Source: a virus (taxonomy: Duplodnaviria > Heunggongvirae > Uroviricota > Caudoviricetes). Taken from it: 5,495 nucleotides of DNA. Of the stretch, positions 188-5,495 are shown piece after piece. Position 1 is the stretch's first letter, and every line of letters begins with the position of its first letter. Both the position numbers and the translations under genes were made by a program. The stretch lies in IMG/VR virus record IMGVR_UViG_2713896775_000009; one strand, given 5' to 3'. The notes below the pieces were generated by a model, which saw only the letters and a program-made list of their open reading frames with translations, ran no database searches and was not told the DNA's origin.

Positions 188-664
188 TTATTCAAGCAGG
201 CTACGCAACATCCAGGCAGTTTTCTCATGTAACTGGATACGTTGTGTAAGCAGATCTGCTGTGGCTTCATCATTCGCATTATTAACGAGCGGGAACAGGG
301 AGCGTGCAGTTTTAACCACGGTCTCCTGGCCCTGGACAAGATTTTCAATCATGTTTTTTGCTGCCGGAATATCCTTATCTTCATTAACCGCTGTTAAACG
401 TGAAAATTCATGATATGTGCCGGGCGCGAAGCATCCGAGCGAGCGTATACGTTCAGCGATATCATCAACGGCAGTGGCCAGCTCATTGTATTGATTTTCA
501 AACATTAAATGTAAGCTGTTAAACATGGGGCCAGTTACATTCCAGTGATAGTAATGTGTTTTTATATACAGGGTATAGGTGTCAGCAAGAAGCCGGGACA
601 GGCCGTCTGCAATCTCCACCCGGGATGATTCAGCAATACCAATATCAATGATTTGTTTACTCAT
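188..664 (-). CDS. Dps-family (ferritin-like, DNA protection during starvation) protein, 158 aa; host gene
   Basis: ORF with ATG start and TAA stop, GAGG about 7 nt upstream. The translation aligns by eye to E. coli Dps across the four-helix core (HW motif, conserved His/Asp/Glu ferroxidase-type residues, DDxTADxLT near the C-terminus) but is clearly not the K-12 dps ortholog. Confidence 0.85.
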
Positions 665-738: not shown

Positions 739-760
739 AAATTTTTATAATAAGTTGGCA
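739..760. other. attL core / host-phage junction (B-O-P' type)
   Basis: aaatttttataataagttggca against lambda attL GCTTTTTTATACTAAGTTGGCA. Everything to the right (TAAGTTGGCATTATAAAAAAGCATTGCTTATCAATTTG...) is identical to the lambda P' arm; everything to the left is unrelated to the lambda P arm. Confidence 0.8.
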
Positions 761-779
761 TTATAAAAAAGCATTGCTT

Positions 780-791
780 ATCAATTTGTTG
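780..791. promoter_or_regulatory. IHF H' site of the attachment site
   Basis: ATCAAtttgTTG fits the IHF consensus WATCAANNNNTTR and sits at the position of H' in the lambda P' arm. Confidence 0.6.
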
Positions 792-799
792 CAACGAAC

Positions 800-830
800 A
801 GGTCACTATCAGTCAAAATAAAATCATTAT
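800..830. promoter_or_regulatory. Int arm-type binding sites P'1-P'3
   Basis: Three tandem 10-mers, aggtcactat (800-809), cagtcaaaat (810-819) and aaatcattat (821-830), as in the lambda P' arm. P'3 overlaps the int stop codon. Confidence 0.7.
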
Positions 831-1897
831 TTGATTTCAATTTTGTCCCACTCCCTGCCTCTGTCATCACGATACTGTGATGCCATGGTGTCCGACTTAT
901 GCCCGAGAAGATGTTGAGCAAACTTATCGCTTATCTGCTTCTCATAGAGTCTTGCAGACAAACTGCGCAACTCGTGAAAGGTAGGCGGATCCCCTTCGAA
1001 GGAAAGACCTGATGCTTTTCGTGCGCGCATAAAATACCTTGATACTGTGCCGGATGAAAGCGGTTCGCGACGAGTAGATGCAATTATGGTTTCTCCGCCA
1101 AGAATCTCTTTGCATTTATCAAGTGTTTCCTTCATTGATATTCCGAGAGCATCAACATGCAATACTGTTGGGATGGCAATTTTTACGCCTGTTTTGCTTT
1201 GCTCGACATAAAGATATCCATCTACGATATCAGACCACTTCATTTCGCATAAATCACCAACTCGTTGCCCGGTAACAACAGCCAGTTCCATTGCAAGTCT
1301 GAGCCAACATGGTGATGATTCTGCTGCTTGATAAATTTTCAGGTATTCGTCAGCCGTAAGTCTTGATCTCCTTACCTCTGATTTTGCTGCGCGAGTGGCA
1401 GCGACAGGGTTTGTTGTTATATGGCCTTCAGCTATTGCCTCTCGGAATGCATCGCTCAGTGTTGATCTGATTAACTTGGCTGACGCCGCCTTGCCCTCGT
1501 CTATGTATCCATTGAGCATTGCCGCAATTTCTTTTGTGGTGATGTCTTCAAGTGGAGCATCAGGCAGACCCCTCCTTATTGCTTTAATTTTGCTCATGTA
1601 ATTTATGAGTGTCTTCTGCTTGATTCCTCTGCTGGCCAGGATTTTTTCGTAGCGATCAAGCCATGAATGTAACGTAACGGAATTATCACTGTTGATTCTC
1701 GCTGTCAGAGGCTTGTGTTTGTGTCCTGAAAATAACTCAATGTTGGCCTGTATAGCTTCAGTGATTGCGATTCGCCTGTCTCTGCCTAATCCAAACTCTT
1801 TACCCGTCCTTGGGTCCCTGTAGCAGTAATATCCATTGTTTCTTATATAAAGGTTAGGGGGTAAATCCCGGCGCTCATGACTTCGCCTTCTTCCCAT
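827..1897 (-). CDS. int: Lambda-type tyrosine integrase Int, 356 aa
   Basis: Translation MGRRRSHERRDLPPNLYIRNNGYYCYRDPRTGKEFGLGRDRR...WDKIEIK is near-identical to phage lambda Int as I recall it, with the same length and the catalytic Tyr in the C-terminal ...ASQYRDD... segment. Confidence 0.97.
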   Translation of the reverse strand: MGRRRSHERRDLPPNLYIRNNGYYCYRDPRTGKEFGLGRDRRIAITEAIQANIELFSGHKHKPLTARINSDNSVTLHSWLDRYEKILASRGIKQKTLINYMSKIKAIRRGLPDAPLEDITTKEIAAMLNGYIDEGKAASAKLIRSTLSDAFREAIAEGHITTNPVAATRAAKSEVRRSRLTADEYLKIYQAAESSPCWLRLAMELAVVTGQRVGDLCEMKWSDIVDGYLYVEQSKTGVKIAIPTVLHVDALGISMKETLDKCKEILGGETIIASTRREPLSSGTVSRYFMRARKASGLSFEGDPPTFHELRSLSARLYEKQISDKFAQHLLGHKSDTMASQYRDDRGREWDKIEIK

Positions 1898-2093
1898 TTC
1901 TGATCCTCTTCAAAAGGCTACCTGTTACTGGTCGATTTAAGTCAACCTTTACCGCTGATTCGTGGAACAGATACTCTCTTCCATCCTTAACCGGAGGAGG
2001 GAATATCCTGCACTCGCGTACCCATCGACGAACTGTTTCAAGGCTTCTTGGGCGTCGCTGGCGTGCGTTCCACTCCTGAAGTGTCAAGTACAT
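1875..2093 (-). CDS. xis: Excisionase Xis, 72 aa
   Basis: Translation MYLTLQEWNARQRRPRSLETVRRWVRECRIFPPPVKDGREYLFHESAVKVDLNRPVTGSLLKRIRNGKKAKS matches lambda Xis as I recall it; 23-nt overlap with int, as in lambda. Confidence 0.95.
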   Translation of the reverse strand: MYLTLQEWNARQRRPRSLETVRRWVRECRIFPPPVKDGREYLFHESAVKVDLNRPVTGSLLKRIRNGKKAKS

Positions 2094-2103
2094 CGCAAAG
2101 TCT

Positions 2104-2119
2104 CCGCAATTACACGCAA
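2104..2119 (-). promoter_or_regulatory. cII-binding site / -35 region of the pI (int) promoter
   Basis: Minus-strand sequence TTGCGTGTAATTGCGG contains the TTGC-N6-TTGC cII recognition repeat just upstream of the xis ATG, the position recalled for lambda pI. Confidence 0.5.
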
Positions 2120-2120
2120 G

Positions 2121-2140
2121 AAAAAACCGCCATCAGGCGG
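2121..2140 (-). terminator. Putative intrinsic terminator (minus strand) upstream of xis
   Basis: Hairpin ccgcc-atca-ggcgg (2127-2140) followed on the minus strand by UUUUUUCUU (complement of 2119-2126). It is part of the lambda-identical backbone. Confidence 0.4.
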
Positions 2141-2300
2141 CTTGGTGTTCTTTCAGTTCTTCAATTCGAATATTGGTTACGTCTGCATGTGCTATCTGCG
2201 CCCATATCATCCAGTGGTTATAACAGTCGTTGATGTTCTCTGCTTCGATAACCCTGTTGAATGGCTCTCCATTCCATTCACCTGTGACTCGGAAGTGCAT
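2133..2300 (-). CDS. Small lambda-backbone ORF, 55 aa (lambda orf55-like), unknown function
   Basis: ATG at 2300 with GGAG about 7 nt upstream; translation MHFRVTGEWNGEPFNRVIEAENINDCYNHWMIWAQIAHADVTNIRIEELKEHQAA. The TGA stop lies in the loop of the 2127-2140 hairpin. Below the 60-aa cut-off of the supplied ORF track, so found by hand. Confidence 0.5.
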   Translation of the reverse strand: MHFRVTGEWNGEPFNRVIEAENINDCYNHWMIWAQIAHADVTNIRIEELKEHQAA

Positions 2301-2312
2301 TTATCATCTCCA

Positions 2313-2337
2313 TAAAACAAAACTCGCCGTAGCGAGT
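2313..2337 (-). terminator. Putative intrinsic terminator (minus strand) downstream of the 142-aa cargo gene
   Basis: Hairpin actcgc-cgta-gcgagt (2322-2337) followed on the minus strand by UUUGUUUUA (complement of 2313-2321). It lies at the left boundary where lambda identity resumes. Confidence 0.45.
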
Positions 2338-2383
2338 TCAGATATAATTTCCACCAAAGGCAGTAGTTGCTTGATGCTAAGAA

Positions 2384-2812
2384 TTATTCAATATCTATTC
2401 CTGTAATCTCTTTTATCTTTTTCCTTGCAAAGCCTTTTGCTAGTGATTTTGAAACACTCATAAGTGTACTAATTCCCTCATCCTTAAAGTTTGTTTTTAT
2501 AGCTTGCCAGACATCCTTTTGACGTAAGTCAGCAATAAAATCATGCCCTCTTGCTGTCAACCTCAGTGGTACTTCGATCCAACTATATCCAACACCTTCC
2601 CCTAACGCTTTGGACAATATATGACCGAACCCAGGTTTTCCATCAACCCTGACTATTAATTCGTAGTCACATAATAATCGCATATGGAAAATAAAATCTT
2701 GGTCATATCTATTAAAGCCATTATCCTCTAGTTCACTAAGCATCGTGTCAGGGCCACGAGTTTTTTCGAATGCGATAAGTAGATCTTTTAGATATTGCTG
2801 GTCTAATTTCAT
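2384..2812 (-). CDS. Hypothetical protein, 142 aa (cargo gene A), function unknown
   Basis: ORF with ATG start and a strong GGAGG Shine-Dalgarno 5 nt upstream, TAA stop. It is not part of lambda. No family recognised with confidence; the N-terminal MKLDQQYLKDLLIAFEKT may resemble small phage-associated DUF-type proteins. Confidence 0.7.
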   Translation of the reverse strand: MKLDQQYLKDLLIAFEKTRGPDTMLSELEDNGFNRYDQDFIFHMRLLCDYELIVRVDGKPGFGHILSKALGEGVGYSWIEVPLRLTARGHDFIADLRQKDVWQAIKTNFKDEGISTLMSVSKSLAKGFARKKIKEITGIDIE

Positions 2813-2822
2813 TGCCGCCTCC

Positions 2823-2834
2823 GTGACATGTCAC
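2823..2834. repeat. Perfect 12-bp palindrome GTGACATGTCAC in the intercistronic spacer
   Basis: Read directly from the sequence; it lies between the stop of cargo gene B (2841) and the SD/ATG of cargo gene A (2812). Confidence 0.6.
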
Positions 2835-2840
2835 AGAGAT

Positions 2841-3179
2841 TTATATCATTAATTTTGTTTCGTGCCAGCCTTTGGTCACCCAGCATTGTGAGTCACCATT
2901 ACACGGGCATGAATTAACAGGAACTCTCTCGCCGCACTTACCGCACCGTTTTCTGCTGATCGATTTTATACGCCAGCGCACACGTGCATCATCCTGGCGG
3001 CTCAGTAACGCGATGTACTCACCAAACTCGCAAGGCGCACGCCTGAAGCGACGCGTGGCACAGTTACGCTCCAGCATTTCAATTTCCTGAGCATCAAGTA
3101 CAAGCTCCAGCTTACGCATACCGGATGATGCTTGCTTGGCTCTCTGATCGGCTTTGTGCTCTGTTGCTGATTTAGCCAT
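2841..3179 (-). CDS. Hypothetical Cys-cluster (zinc-ribbon-like) protein, 112 aa (cargo gene B), function unknown
   Basis: ORF with ATG start, AGGA about 9 nt upstream, TAA stop. The C-terminus carries CGKCGERVPVNSCPCNGDSQC (C-x2-C...C-x-C...C). It is not lambda Ea8.5, whose sequence I recall as different. Confidence 0.65.
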   Translation of the reverse strand: MAKSATEHKADQRAKQASSGMRKLELVLDAQEIEMLERNCATRRFRRAPCEFGEYIALLSRQDDARVRWRIKSISRKRCGKCGERVPVNSCPCNGDSQCWVTKGWHETKLMI

Positions 3180-3372
3180 TCTGCTTTTCCTGCATCAGGA
3201 GAAAGACAATCATGGCGGCGCGGATACTTCCGGTATCTTTATACGCGATATTCCCCTTCAATGGCACATACAAGAAGAGAGCCATCAACAGGAGTGATTG
3301 AGGAATCGACAACCAGCAACGCTTAATTATCTATAGTGTCGTATTTGCTTCATAAAATATGGCGAATAACAC

Positions 3373-3404
3373 AAAGCCCGCAGCAGCTCATTGTGCGGGC
3401 TTTT
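3373..3404. terminator. Putative bidirectional intrinsic terminator downstream of cargo gene C
   Basis: Hairpin aaagcccgca / tgcgggcttt (7-bp GC-rich core 3376-3382 / 3394-3400, extendable by A:U pairs, 11-nt loop), flanked by an A-run on one side and a T-run on the other. It sits ~70 nt past the stop of gene C. Confidence 0.45.
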
Positions 3405-3472
3405 CTTATACCTACTTCCTAGAGATAATTCTATGGAGGCATTAAATCAATACTGTCATTGGTAATATCATA

Positions 3473-4087
3473 TTATCTAAAAGTCTTTCCACTTTTAACA
3501 TCTAGGTATATTCTGTTCGACAACGTCATTCCTCCGCAATATGTGAAATAGATGTTTTCACCCTTATTGCTTGATGCCATCCACCCTCCGATTTCCTTAA
3601 AATCGCTTTCCGTGCAGACCCCTTCATTTATTAACTTCCTAGCTGCCGAAGAAAACTCTTTTTTGTATATACGGTAGTCATCAGATCCTTTGATTAAAGT
3701 ATCATCTCCGCTCGCATTTTCAGCAGGATCTGATGGCCTTTCACTGCTAAGATCACTAAATTTAACCCATTCTGAAAACTTGCCATTAACGATTCCATTT
3801 TTTCTTGTGCAGGATTTATTACCTTCTTTAATATATTCGCTTTCCCCTCCAACACATGAGGCTGAATATGGCTCAGTTATACGAACCCATTCACCTTTTT
3901 TTTCTAGAAAATCTACGCCTTCCCTGAAAAATAGTTTCCCAGCCACTCCACATTTACTTGAAGGGCAGGTATGTCTTTCCGTTCGATCAACAACAACCCA
4001 TAGTTTTGATTCATTTTTTGCCATTGCCGATGGTATTTGAGATGAGACAATTAACGTAAGCCCTAAAATTAGTATTGATTTTTTCAT
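3473..4087 (-). CDS. Secreted/periplasmic protein with N-terminal signal peptide, 204 aa (cargo gene C), function unknown
   Basis: ORF with ATG start and AAAGGAA SD, TAA stop. N-terminus MKKSILILGLTLIVSSQIPSAMA-KNE is a classic Sec signal (basic n-region, hydrophobic core, AxA cleavage motif). Six Cys in the mature part. Visibly AT-rich. Confidence 0.75.
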   Translation of the reverse strand: MKKSILILGLTLIVSSQIPSAMAKNESKLWVVVDRTERHTCPSSKCGVAGKLFFREGVDFLEKKGEWVRITEPYSASCVGGESEYIKEGNKSCTRKNGIVNGKFSEWVKFSDLSSERPSDPAENASGDDTLIKGSDDYRIYKKEFSSAARKLINEGVCTESDFKEIGGWMASSNKGENIYFTYCGGMTLSNRIYLDVKSGKTFR

Positions 4088-4385
4088 TGTAATTTCCTTT
4101 TACTTTTTACAAAGCGTTTAATCATGGCTGATTATCTCTAAGTGTAGTAACAGCCTTGTGCGAAACATGTTACCAAATCGCCATTTCAGTGTATCCGCAG
4201 TTAGGCTGCCACTTCAAGGATTCCTAATTACATGGTACGTAAGCGTAAAATCCCGTTGGTTGGCGGGTAATAACTCTGATCAAATCTCCCTTGTCTTTTG
4301 CTCTTACGTATGCAGCTCTTGTGTATTCAACCCAGGCCTCCAGTTCAGCAATACGCTTACTTCCATCCGAGATAACACCTTCTAC

Positions 4386-4637
4386 TCACGCTGCTCGTTG
4401 AGTTTTGATTTTTGCTGTCTCCAGCTCAACACGCAGTTTCCCCACCGTTAGCGCAATATCCTCGTTCTCCTGGTCGCGGCGTTTGATGTATTGCTGGTTT
4501 CTTTCCCGTTCATCCAGCAGTGTCAGCACAATCGATGGTGTTACCAGCTCATGGAAAAGGTCCGCGTCAAATCCCCAGTTGTCAGGCATTGCCTGCTCTG
4601 CCGCTTCACGCAGTGCCTGAGAGTGAATTACGCTCAC
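4386..4637 (-). CDS. ea22: Ea22-like protein, N-terminal 83 codons ending at an in-frame TGA (truncated or chimeric)
   Basis: GTG start overlapping the orf73 stop (GTGA), with AGAGAGG SD. Translation MSVIHSQALREAAEQAMPDNWGFDADLFHELVTPSIVLTLLDERERNQQYIKRRDQENEDIALTVGKLRVELETAK... matches the lambda Ea22 N-terminus as I recall it. The same frame continues open past the TGA to 4227. Confidence 0.75.
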   Translation of the reverse strand: MSVIHSQALREAAEQAMPDNWGFDADLFHELVTPSIVLTLLDERERNQQYIKRRDQENEDIALTVGKLRVELETAKIKTQRAA

Positions 4638-4855
4638 TTCGAACCTCTCTGTTTACTGATAAGCTCCAGATCTTCCTGGCAACTTGCACAAGTCCGACAA
4701 CCCTGAACGGCCAGGCGTCTTAGCTCATCTATGGGATCGCCACACTCACAACAATGAGTGGCAGATACAGCCTGGTGGTTCAGGCGGCGCATTTTTATTG
4801 CTGTGTTGCGCTGTAATTCTTCAATTTCTGATGCTGAATCAATGATGTCTGCCAT
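4634..4855 (-). CDS. orf73: TraR/DksA-family C4 zinc-finger protein, 73 aa (lambda orf73)
   Basis: Translation MADIIDSASEIEELQRNTAIKMRRLNHQAVSATHCCECGDPIDELRRLAVQGCRTCASCQEDLELISKQRGSK carries the CxxC-x17-CxxC TraR-type motif and lies between ea22 and the orf61 region, as in lambda. Confidence 0.9.
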   Translation of the reverse strand: MADIIDSASEIEELQRNTAIKMRRLNHQAVSATHCCECGDPIDELRRLAVQGCRTCASCQEDLELISKQRGSK

Positions 4856-4910
4856 CTTCCATTAATCCCTGAATTGTTGGTTAATACGCTTGGGGGTAAA
4901 TGCGAGCAAT

Positions 4911-4931
4911 AAAAAAGGAGCCTGTAGCTCC
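4911..4931 (-). terminator. Putative intrinsic terminator (minus strand) between the orf61 region and orf73
   Basis: Hairpin ggagc-ctgta-gctcc (4917-4931) followed on the minus strand by UUUUUUAUU (complement of 4908-4916). Confidence 0.4.
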
Positions 4932-4953
4932 CTGATAATTTTGCTTTTCATGT

Positions 4954-5235
4954 TCATCGTTCCTTAAAGACGCCGTTTAACATGCCGATTGCCAGGCTTA
5001 AATGAGTCGGTGTGAATCCCATCAGCGTTACCGTTTCGCGGTGCTTCTTCAGTACGCTACGGCAAATGTCATCGACGTTTTTATCCGGAAACTGCTGTCT
5101 GGCTTTTTTGATTTCAGAATTAGCCTGACGGGCAATGCTGCGAAGGGCGTTTTCTTGCTGAGGTGTCATTGAACAAGCCCCATGTCGGCAAGCATAAGCA
5201 CACAGAATATGAAGCCCGCTGCCAGAAAAATGCAT
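4954..5235 (-). CDS. Small lambda early-left-region protein, 93 aa from the first ATG (71 aa if started at MTPQQ, ATG at 5169)
   Basis: Open frame with TGA stop. The internal ATG at 5169 has a GGGG SD-like element about 5 nt upstream; the ATG at 5235 has no obvious SD. Corresponds to the lambda orf61 locus but in a different frame and length here. Confidence 0.6.
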   Translation of the reverse strand: MHFSGSGLHILCAYACRHGACSMTPQQENALRSIARQANSEIKKARQQFPDKNVDDICRSVLKKHRETVTLMGFTPTHLSLAIGMLNGVFKER

Positions 5236-5245
5236 TCAGTGGTTG

Positions 5246-5437
5246 TCATACCTGGTCTCTCTCATCTGCTTCTGCTTTCGCCACCATCATTTCCAGCTTT
5301 TGTGAAAGGGATGCGGCTAACGTATGAAATTCTTCGTCTGTTTCTACTGGTATTGGCACAAACCTGACTCCAATTTGAGCGAGGCTATGTGCCATCTCGA
5401 TACACGTTCTTAACTCAACAGGAGATGCTTTGTGCAT
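5246..5437 (-). CDS. orf63: Lambda Orf63-like protein, 63 aa
   Basis: Translation MHKASPVELRTCIEMAHSLAQIGVRFVPIPVETDEEFHTLAASLSQKLEMMVAKAEADERDQV; ATG with a GGGGGG SD; position and length as lambda orf63. Confidence 0.9.
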   Translation of the reverse strand: MHKASPVELRTCIEMAHSLAQIGVRFVPIPVETDEEFHTLAASLSQKLEMMVAKAEADERDQV

Positions 5438-5495
5438 ACAGCCCCCCGTTTATTATTTATCTCCTCAGCCAGCCGCTGTGCTTTCAGGGGATTTC
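5410..5495 (-). CDS. 3' end of an orf60a-like ORF (partial, enters from beyond the window end)
   Basis: Minus-strand frame is open from the window edge, ...NPLKAQRLAEEINNKRGAVCTKHLLLS, to a TAA at 5410-5412. It overlaps the orf63 start by 28 nt, as recalled for the lambda orf60a/orf63 pair. Confidence 0.5.
   Translation of the reverse strand, partial: NPLKAQRLAEEINNKRGAVCTKHLLLS

Follow-up and report, generated by a model that had tools for sequence, protein, structure and literature searches.

The window analysed here is a stretch of 5,495 nucleotides (nt) from a tailed virus of the class Caudoviricetes (IMG/VR virus record IMGVR_UViG_2713896775_000009), and carries part of a lambda-like prophage. 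Between the lambda-type genes orf55 and ea22 lies an interval of non-lambda DNA, which is best explained as a recombinational patchwork of a DUF2513 gene, a phrog_536 gene with the tail of a ninX gene, the scar of a humD gene, a hairpin, a gene for an exported SH3b protein, and a foreign tail of ea22. These pieces, six or more with separate origins, would have come from at least four unrelated sources, and would amount to two self-contained accessory genes (morons) accompanied by hitch-hiking, decaying material. They are regarded as independent because the genes differ in distribution and in GC content, sister prophages have other genes where the SH3b protein gene stands, and the interval contains gene scars. 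For this reading as a whole we estimate a probability of about three in four.

The borders of the interval were located by blastn alignment of the window to lambda (NC_001416). Positions 742–2348 correspond to lambda 27727–29333 (98.9% identity) and positions 4339–5495 to lambda 30094–31254 (96.0%). Positions 2349–4338 gave no alignment to NC_001416, and no lambda record spans the interval. Since lambda homology ends at 2348 and resumes at 4339, these positions delimit the insert, which stands in place of 760 bp of lambda (29334–30093) holding ea8.5 (29374–29655) and the 3′ 247 bp, or last 82 codons, of ea22. A sequence-only reading of the window had proposed such a replacement of ea8.5 and the 3′ part of ea22 by non-lambda cargo in the mosaic region between xis and exo; this is borne out, with its limits (2338–4345) shifted by 7–11 nt. 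That reading also described three open reading frames (ORFs) of the minus strand, a signal peptide, a Cys cluster and a hairpin inside the interval; all of these were found, and a division into two transcription units with an internal terminator-like hairpin is supported. The interval had also seemed richer in AT than its surroundings. This holds for the DUF2513 gene (36.6% GC) and for the gene of the 204-amino-acid (aa) SH3b protein (37.9%), but not for the phrog_536 gene, which encodes a protein of 112 aa (50.4%); the lambda flanks have 44.6% and 48.0%. The features of the insert and its right junction are as follows:

2349–4338, minus strand: the non-lambda insert, 1,990 bp (blastn and lambda annotation)
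2384–2812, minus strand: DUF2513 gene, 142 aa (PF10711/phrog_585)
2823–2834: candidate operator, a perfect palindrome of 12 bp (GTGACATGTCAC) ending 10 nt ahead of the DUF2513 start codon
2838–2872, minus strand: DUF2513 promoter-like element, CTGGCA-17 nt-TGaTATAAA (extended −10), which covers the final codons of the 112-aa gene together with its stop (read from the sequence)
2841–3179, minus strand: gene for a basic Cys-cluster protein of 112 aa (phrog_536, annotated "transcriptional regulator")
3180–3237, minus strand: scar, the 3′ end of a ninX (DUF2591) gene, accompanying the 112-aa gene; the same stretch falls under NinX-family genes in other Escherichia coli prophages
3242–3319, minus strand: scar of a HumD/UmuD-like S24 peptidase gene, 26 internal codons and a stop (LLVVDSSITPVDGSLLVCAIEGEYRV, then the stop)
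3374–3403: GC-rich hairpin, terminator-like in both directions, ending the 204-aa unit (terminator scan of the plus strand, RNA folding of the minus strand)
3473–4087, minus strand: gene for the 204-aa exported protein (phrog_8310), with a Sec-type leader MKKSILILGLTLIVSSQIPSAMA, an SH3b domain (residues ∼28–115) and a C-terminal alpha/beta domain (∼129–204)
4088–4228, minus strand: stretch of 141 nt upstream of the 204-aa gene, AT-rich by composition (38% GC); presumed to hold a promoter
4229–4338, minus strand: foreign 3′ end continuing the ea22 frame, 37 codons (read from the sequence)
4386–4637, minus strand: lambda-type 5′ part of ea22 (PF13935, 1.3e-20), labelled "frameshifted; incomplete" in RefSeq

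The three genes of the insert have separate histories. In a tblastn search of a collection of 50,697 phage records, the 112-aa gene was found in 55 records, the DUF2513 gene in two and the 204-aa gene in one, the isolated phage Chlobot (PP925838, 46.5 kb). Carriers of the 112-aa gene include epsilon15, phiV10, TL-2011b, Tyrion, ZF40, and Yersinia and Aeromonas phages. Most of the approximately 1,000 partial matches among E. coli genomes likewise consist of this gene alone, at 90–92% nucleotide identity, beside NinX or ASCH genes. Four lambda-like prophages in IMG/VR (L037–L040) contain the pair of 112-aa and 142-aa genes but lack the 204-aa gene; in the one examined in detail (L037), the humD scar is kept, and other genes together with a full-length Ea22 of 187 aa replace the 204-aa gene. 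Such unequal distributions, and the exchange of one gene for others between sister prophages, speak against the earlier view of the interval as one module. E. coli cases that appeared to have only the DUF2513 gene proved to carry this arrangement truncated by IS1, and to have it next to ybhC, where lambda normally integrates.

Taken as a unit, the arrangement is widespread. Chlobot matches window positions 742–5495 with six mismatches and no gaps (99.9% identity over the interval); in this phage, whose lambda-like genome is complete, the interval belongs to the leftward operon from N to int. Among 5,426 complete E. coli genomes, 130 contain the entire interval, that of ATCC 8739 being one of them. 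It is also present in at least 41 IMG/VR contigs, and exact copies of each of the three proteins occur in roughly 750 to more than 1,000 contigs, named only "hypothetical" or "DUF2513". What had been taken for an undescribed segment is, therefore, a common and already annotated lambdoid variant, one of the two outcomes that the sequence-only reading had itself named as refuting it. The three proteins are not unrecognised, as their families have been catalogued (PF10711/phrog_585, phrog_536 and phrog_8310), but these families are uncharacterised, and the statement that no function has been demonstrated for any of the three stands.

Four features did not figure in the earlier description: the humD/umuD fragment, the ninX tail, the foreign 3′ end of ea22 and the ea22 frameshift. 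The humD scar matches phrog_10470 (4e-9), phrog_811 (4e-8) and the NCBIfam family HumD (1.6e-8), carries the RefSeq label "DNA repair protein, incomplete", and would mark an earlier junction. The right junction appears to lie inside ea22, which would have gained a foreign tail there and been shifted in frame. As read from the sequence, a local +1 and then −4 frameshift relative to lambda (4386–4400) leads to a TGA at 4386–4388. The same ea22 sequence is present in the viable phage Chlobot, and full-length Ea22 is therefore dispensable for plaque formation by this phage. The sole relatives of the foreign tail in the phage collection are hypothetical genes of the ∼108-kb Escherichia phages Cyrano, CMS-2020a and PhiR41_1 (51–56% matches by tblastn), and matches of 70–80 nt occur on E. 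coli plasmids. A search of Rfam at E ≤ 1 gave no RNA family.

The 112-aa and DUF2513 genes

The 112-aa protein matches phrog_536 over its full length (E 7.3e-48, residues 1–111 on positions 2–114 of the 115 in the profile), and has a basic N-terminus and a set of invariant residues (C40, C79-x2-C82, C91-x-C93, C99 and H106). These features suggest a small, basic, zinc-binding protein, for which a DNA-binding role is plausible; in this interval it is probably dispensable. A match to the LexA-regulated YbfE (NF008671) is weak (E 0.0068, with 16.8 bits where the cut-off is 62) and was given by five of 19 homologs. Pfam scans of the 19 returned no real family and no ribbon-helix-helix match. Intactness was scored in 41 IMG/VR loci of the E. 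coli type. The gene is intact in 16 of them, and 19 share a TGA at codon 40, which is the codon of an invariant Cys in intact homologs. The other lesions are a stop at codon 79 (one locus), partial deletions of two extents (three), a frameshift (one) and loss of the gene (two). Some 60% of the E. coli copies are thus broken, by at least four distinct kinds of lesion (loci L029, L034–L036, L038–L040, L042–L057 and L061), while the DUF2513 and 204-aa genes beside them remain intact. The Uetakevirus-like phages epsilon15, phiV10 and TL-2011b also encode full members of phrog_536, with 70–87% identity to the 112-aa protein, but in those phages it is located at the extreme end of the record or just before the terminase genes, whereas here it occupies the early-left operon of lambda and is often inactivated.

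In the Chlobot record, positions 17009–17487 are annotated as a "UmuD-like protein" and a 46-aa "transcriptional regulator", even though the 112-aa ORF is present there with 100% identity. An analogous out-of-frame ORF of 105 aa occurs in L037. By analogy, the "UmuD-like" call is probably a gene-calling artefact, with its start within the humD scar and the rest reading through the 112-aa gene in another frame.

A gap of 28 nt separates the 112-aa gene from the DUF2513 gene in the window. The same pair occurs in Cronobacter-type epsilon15-like prophages, immediately before terS/terL, with a gap of 27–28 nt and with identities of 60% and 61%. In a survey of 115 fetched DUF2513 loci (L021–L135), the pair was found with a gap of 25–28 nt in 15 loci outside E. 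coli (12 distinct upstream sequences), at amino-acid identities of 47–62% and 59–72%, respectively. Unpaired DUF2513 homologs are about as numerous as paired ones in the same range of identity. They are found in the nin region of Citrobacter, beside an integrase in Serratia, alone before terS, between the lysis genes and terS of a Klebsiella phage, and also in Enterobacter. Most likely, the pair has travelled as a unit from an epsilon15-like phage, together with the ninX tail, and neither gene needs the other. The fragment [ninX tail]-[112-aa gene]-[DUF2513 gene] would be of the type found upstream of the terminase genes in epsilon15-like prophages, here placed beside orf55.

The DUF2513 protein matches all 100 positions of the PF10711 model with 42.5 bits (gathering threshold 29.6), and all 35 homologs that were scanned (35/35) also match this family. 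An AlphaFold2 model built with the 35 homologs, with a pLDDT (predicted local distance difference test score) of 93.2, indicates a DNA-binding protein of dimer type with a winged-helix, MarR/PadR-like fold. At E ≤ 1, neither the protein nor its 35 homologs matched the MarR or PadR families of Pfam. It differs from MarR, PadR and HxlR regulators in that its sequence matches only PF10711 and, weakly, wHTH-PRTase_assc; its model has a C-terminal helical extension and no sign of a ligand pocket; the gene is solitary and phage-carried; and the wing is long and hypervariable. Within the family alignment, the wing hairpin (residues ∼62–79, window 2576–2629) varies most, and the model is least confident there (pLDDT 82–86). 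Between E. coli lineages the protein shows few amino-acid changes, with a ratio of nonsynonymous to synonymous substitution rates (dN/dS) that is near neutral or higher. These observations could reflect a specificity-determining surface, or simply relaxed constraint.

Upstream of this gene, the palindrome GTGACATGTCAC is kept with at most one mismatch, 10–12 nt from the ATG, in homologs of 59–100% identity, both with and without an adjacent 112-aa gene. It occurs once in the window and once in the 46.5-kb Chlobot genome, and neither contains further copies that might serve as regulatory targets. Ahead of it, the extended −10-like stretch TGATATAAA is conserved across genera, and GGnTGGCA and TATAA are conserved in the alignment, including loci from which the 112-aa gene is missing. 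Such unpaired loci still keep the last ∼30 nt of the 112-aa gene, which is exactly the promoter-like stretch. Remoter DUF2513 genes have another conserved upstream motif, again with an extended −10-like sequence, TGTGATAAT.

Because a conserved promoter-like element and a palindrome precede its ATG, the DUF2513 gene is probably a self-contained, negatively autoregulated moron. Its own sigma-70-like promoter would lie within the end of the 112-aa gene, with GTGACATGTCAC at about the start of transcription, and the DUF2513 protein would most likely bind the palindrome and repress its own synthesis, as the modelled fold and the conservation of the site suggest. If autoregulated in this way, its expression in the lysogen would not depend on pL. 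An intact copy is found in 38 of the 41 E. coli-type loci.

The exported SH3b protein

An AlphaFold2 model of the 204-aa protein (42 homologs) has a pLDDT of 89.8 outside the signal peptide. It shows an SH3b fold, in agreement with a PF08239-type family match, followed by a domain of three helices and three strands at residues 129–204. This C-terminal domain has no match in Pfam, nor did it find one in the Protein Data Bank (PDB) in searches with the whole protein, which are dominated by SH3 (Foldseek gave only SH3 matches). The PDB was also searched by sequence, using both single proteins and profiles, which yielded nothing useful, and matches of the 204-aa profile to de-novo TIM barrels were rejected as repeat artefacts. 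The family has six conserved Cys residues, and in some homologs a lipobox replaces the signal-peptidase I site. This fits a periplasmic or envelope location. The product would leave the cytoplasm by the Sec route, probably with three disulfides to stabilise it, and would most likely attach to peptidoglycan by its SH3b domain, leaving the conserved C-terminal domain to act in the envelope. In contrast to the SH3b proteins among endolysins, autolysins and NlpC/P60 enzymes, it has no catalytic domain, and has the C-terminal domain of ∼80 residues instead.

The C-terminal domain is itself widespread. A search of 1.84 billion proteins (E ≤ 0.001, clustered at 50% identity) gave 416 clusters, and in almost all of the 150 best matches the domain is at or near the C-terminus. 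Twelve of 20 such proteins that were scanned have an SH3_3 match just upstream, and some carry zinc ribbons or ankyrin repeats at the N-terminus. An exception is the protein P0380, where the domain stands close to the N-terminus, ahead of a "superinfection immunity" domain of the T4 Imm type (PF14373, 2e-17); this is the sole hint towards phage exclusion. The 204-aa protein had no match in Pfam, PHROG or NCBIfam to the superinfection-exclusion families Cor, Llp, SieA/B and T4 Imm.

Homologs with 59–69% identity are encoded by solitary genes, which follow integrases on small Pseudomonas islands or are found in an Aeromonas prophage, among insertion sequence elements and, once, beside pheT. In seven contexts no constant genomic partner, such as a type VI secretion effector or a toxin, was seen, and the idea of an orphan immunity protein is unsupported for lack of such a partner. 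In the Pseudomonas loci (L004–L007, L139 and L140) the homolog is the first gene after the integrase, and the same unannotated genes recur, including one for a protein of ∼337 aa; the island is possibly satellite-like, or a small integrative element of another kind. The gene and its hairpin would thus be a single-gene cassette that moves, in Escherichia, Aeromonas and Pseudomonas, among prophages and integrase islands. Of 35 E. coli loci, 33 have the gene intact. One of six comparisons had no synonymous change; dN/dS in the other five was 0.10–0.27, all from very small counts. By this measure, it looks to be under purifying selection.

The lambda-like surroundings

Outside the insert, the window contains the following features:

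188–664, minus strand: Dps-family gene
near 742: left end of the prophage (attL)
827–1897, minus strand: lambda-type int
1875–2093, minus strand: lambda-type xis
2133–2300, minus strand: lambda-type orf55
2320–2339, minus strand: lambda-derived terminator-like hairpin within the lambda block 742–2348, just outside the left breakpoint, closing the unit of the 112-aa and 142-aa genes (terminator scan)
4634–4855, minus strand: orf73, TraR/DksA-type

Past orf73, at the right end of the window, are two small ORFs of the exo-xis region, also on the minus strand. The whole window is found in the chromosome of E. coli TC24 with one mismatch. The TC24 prophage is a remnant, continuing beyond the window with a DUF1317 ORF of the exo-xis region (the counterpart of lambda orf60a), lysis-gene fragments and trkG. 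This bears on the expected expression of the insert. In a complete phage such as Chlobot, the whole interval would also be transcribed from pL under N antitermination; the remnant prophage of the window lacks pL, and expression there is likely for the self-promoted genes only.

The left end of the prophage is unusual. Its junction core (739–756) is CAAATTTTTATAATAA as against GCTTTTTTATACTAA in lambda, a non-canonical sequence with a mismatch within the 7-bp overlap region, and it abuts the Dps-family gene, not ybhC. The Dps-int junction is present in 18 of the 5,426 complete E. coli genomes, the int gene itself in about 1,950, which hints that the phage integrated at a secondary site or that the junction was rearranged later. 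In TC24 (7225–9499 of the fetched locus) and in E70 (9088–10490), the lambda-like remnant is joined to the lysis genes rrrD/rzpD, and then to trkG, a gene of the Rac prophage region in K-12. Such joints imply recombination between different cryptic prophages. The identical segment was also found on several records of 145–455 kb, much too small for a chromosome (e.g. NZ_CP026206, 191 kb; NZ_CP081783, 304 kb; NZ_CP034659, 455 kb), at least one of which has the identical Dps-int junction; overall, plasmids account for 152 matching places. Either large plasmids have captured this chromosomal region, or the records may result from assembly or labelling problems.

Alternative readings and meaning

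The sequence-only reading favoured one new defence, anti-defence or exclusion module, formed by all three genes. Their site is indeed a known accessory region of lambdoid phages (PMC7093339), all three proteins are uncharacterised, they stand together in the 130 complete E. coli genomes, and the remote relative P0380 has the C-terminal domain fused to a T4 Imm-type domain. However, this co-occurrence is that of one recent arrangement, at ≥96% identity, and not a conserved association: outside this arrangement, the other two genes in no case accompany the 204-aa gene, and L037–L040 do without it. No match to PADLOC-DB v2 at E ≤ 1 was obtained for the three proteins or the humD fragment, nor was there a nuclease, NTPase, protease, TIR/SIR2 or membrane-effector domain. 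With gene scars in the interval, and a 112-aa gene that is a pseudogene in most copies, a common role in defence is highly improbable. It is also unlikely that the 112-aa gene and the 142-aa gene form a two-gene system, whether as a type II toxin-antitoxin-like pair or as a regulator and partner that depend on each other. The genes are small, adjacent and co-directional, their gap of 25–28 nt is kept across genera at about 50–60% identity, a palindrome lies between them, and the upstream protein has the weak, ribbon-helix-helix-like match to YbfE. Each gene, however, is common alone, the 112-aa gene in the ∼1,000 partial E. coli matches and in epsilon15 and phiV10, and DUF2513 in Citrobacter, Enterobacter, Serratia and Klebsiella. 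DUF2513 has the predicted fold of a transcription factor and no toxin-like domain. In 23 of the 41 loci it is intact while the upstream gene has a stop or deletion, 19 of these loci having the stop at codon 40, a state that would be lethal were DUF2513 a toxin. The frequent breakage of the 112-aa gene beside an intact DUF2513 gene therefore argues against a toxin-antitoxin relationship.

At the other extreme, the whole interval might be functionless debris in a decaying cryptic prophage. The prophage of the window is a remnant, running from int to orf60a and then into lysis-gene fragments and trkG, and the interval has two scars, a frameshifted ea22, the frequently broken 112-aa gene, and a DUF2513 gene with dN/dS near neutral within E. 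coli. We consider this very unlikely, as the same interval is carried by an isolated, plaque-forming phage. DUF2513 and the 204-aa gene are intact in nearly all loci (38/41 and 33/35), both families are full-length across genera at 45–75% identity, the 204-aa gene has a low dN/dS, and the upstream control region of DUF2513 is conserved. The patchwork with two morons accounts best for these observations, and several points weigh against it. The recurrence of the pair across genera could mean joint action, which is underplayed when the pieces are called independent. The promoter-like element of DUF2513 was missed by a strict consensus promoter scan, which also found no consensus promoter for the 204-aa gene on the minus strand. 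The −35 region encodes, in addition, a conserved GWHE motif, so that in paired loci its conservation has two possible causes, and GTGACATGTCAC could be bound by the 112-aa protein or a host factor instead. Within E. coli, the DUF2513 dN/dS of 0.45–1.3 is relaxed or near neutral, a poor fit to an important function there, and the dN/dS values are based on 3–16 substitutions per gene in loci that are not independent samples. A literature search for DUF2513 and the RefSeq protein accessions found nothing relevant; the abstract of the paper on vB_EcoP_ZX5 deals with other ORFs.

Among known categories, the insert comes nearest to the mosaic accessory cargo that lambdoid phages carry between exo and xis, a region described as variable, with divergent C-termini of Ea22 in particular (PMC7093339). 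As with the morons of the exo-xis and b regions (ea8.5, ea22, bor and lom), the borders are conserved in lambda, the content is non-essential and varies between near-identical phages, the composition is unlike that of the flanks, and single genes would have their own control signals, with a terminator-like hairpin. Presence/absence polymorphism and atypical composition, which characterise morons, were both observed, and terminator-like hairpins are present, while the DUF2513 promoter is proposed from its motif. Compared with lambda or the studied Stx phages, the genes are different, the insert is a composite that includes gene fragments, and one junction lies inside ea22.

As a genome feature, the insert is ordinary, being one more mosaic cargo between xis and exo that is already in many public records, and it serves as a caution that non-lambda blocks in this region need not be coherent defence modules. 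Its value as a lead lies in DUF2513 and in the SH3b-linked C-terminal domain, as compact and apparently self-regulated units of temperate phages, and it offers a concrete, testable hypothesis, that the winged-helix DUF2513 protein binds GTGACATGTCAC at its own promoter. For the two intact genes, a part in defence, exclusion or lysogenic conversion is conceivable, although no specific evidence points that way. A more tentative and rather doubtful idea is that one of these two genes, taken as self-promoted, gives the lysogen a new kind of protection, with DUF2513 acting like a repressor to silence incoming phages or other mobile elements that have GTGACATGTCAC-like sites, or with the SH3b protein binding the cell wall and blocking phage entry, phage lysins or peptidoglycan-targeting toxins. 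If true, such a protective role would define the function of a widespread family, either PF10711 or the C-terminal domain with its more than 400 clusters.

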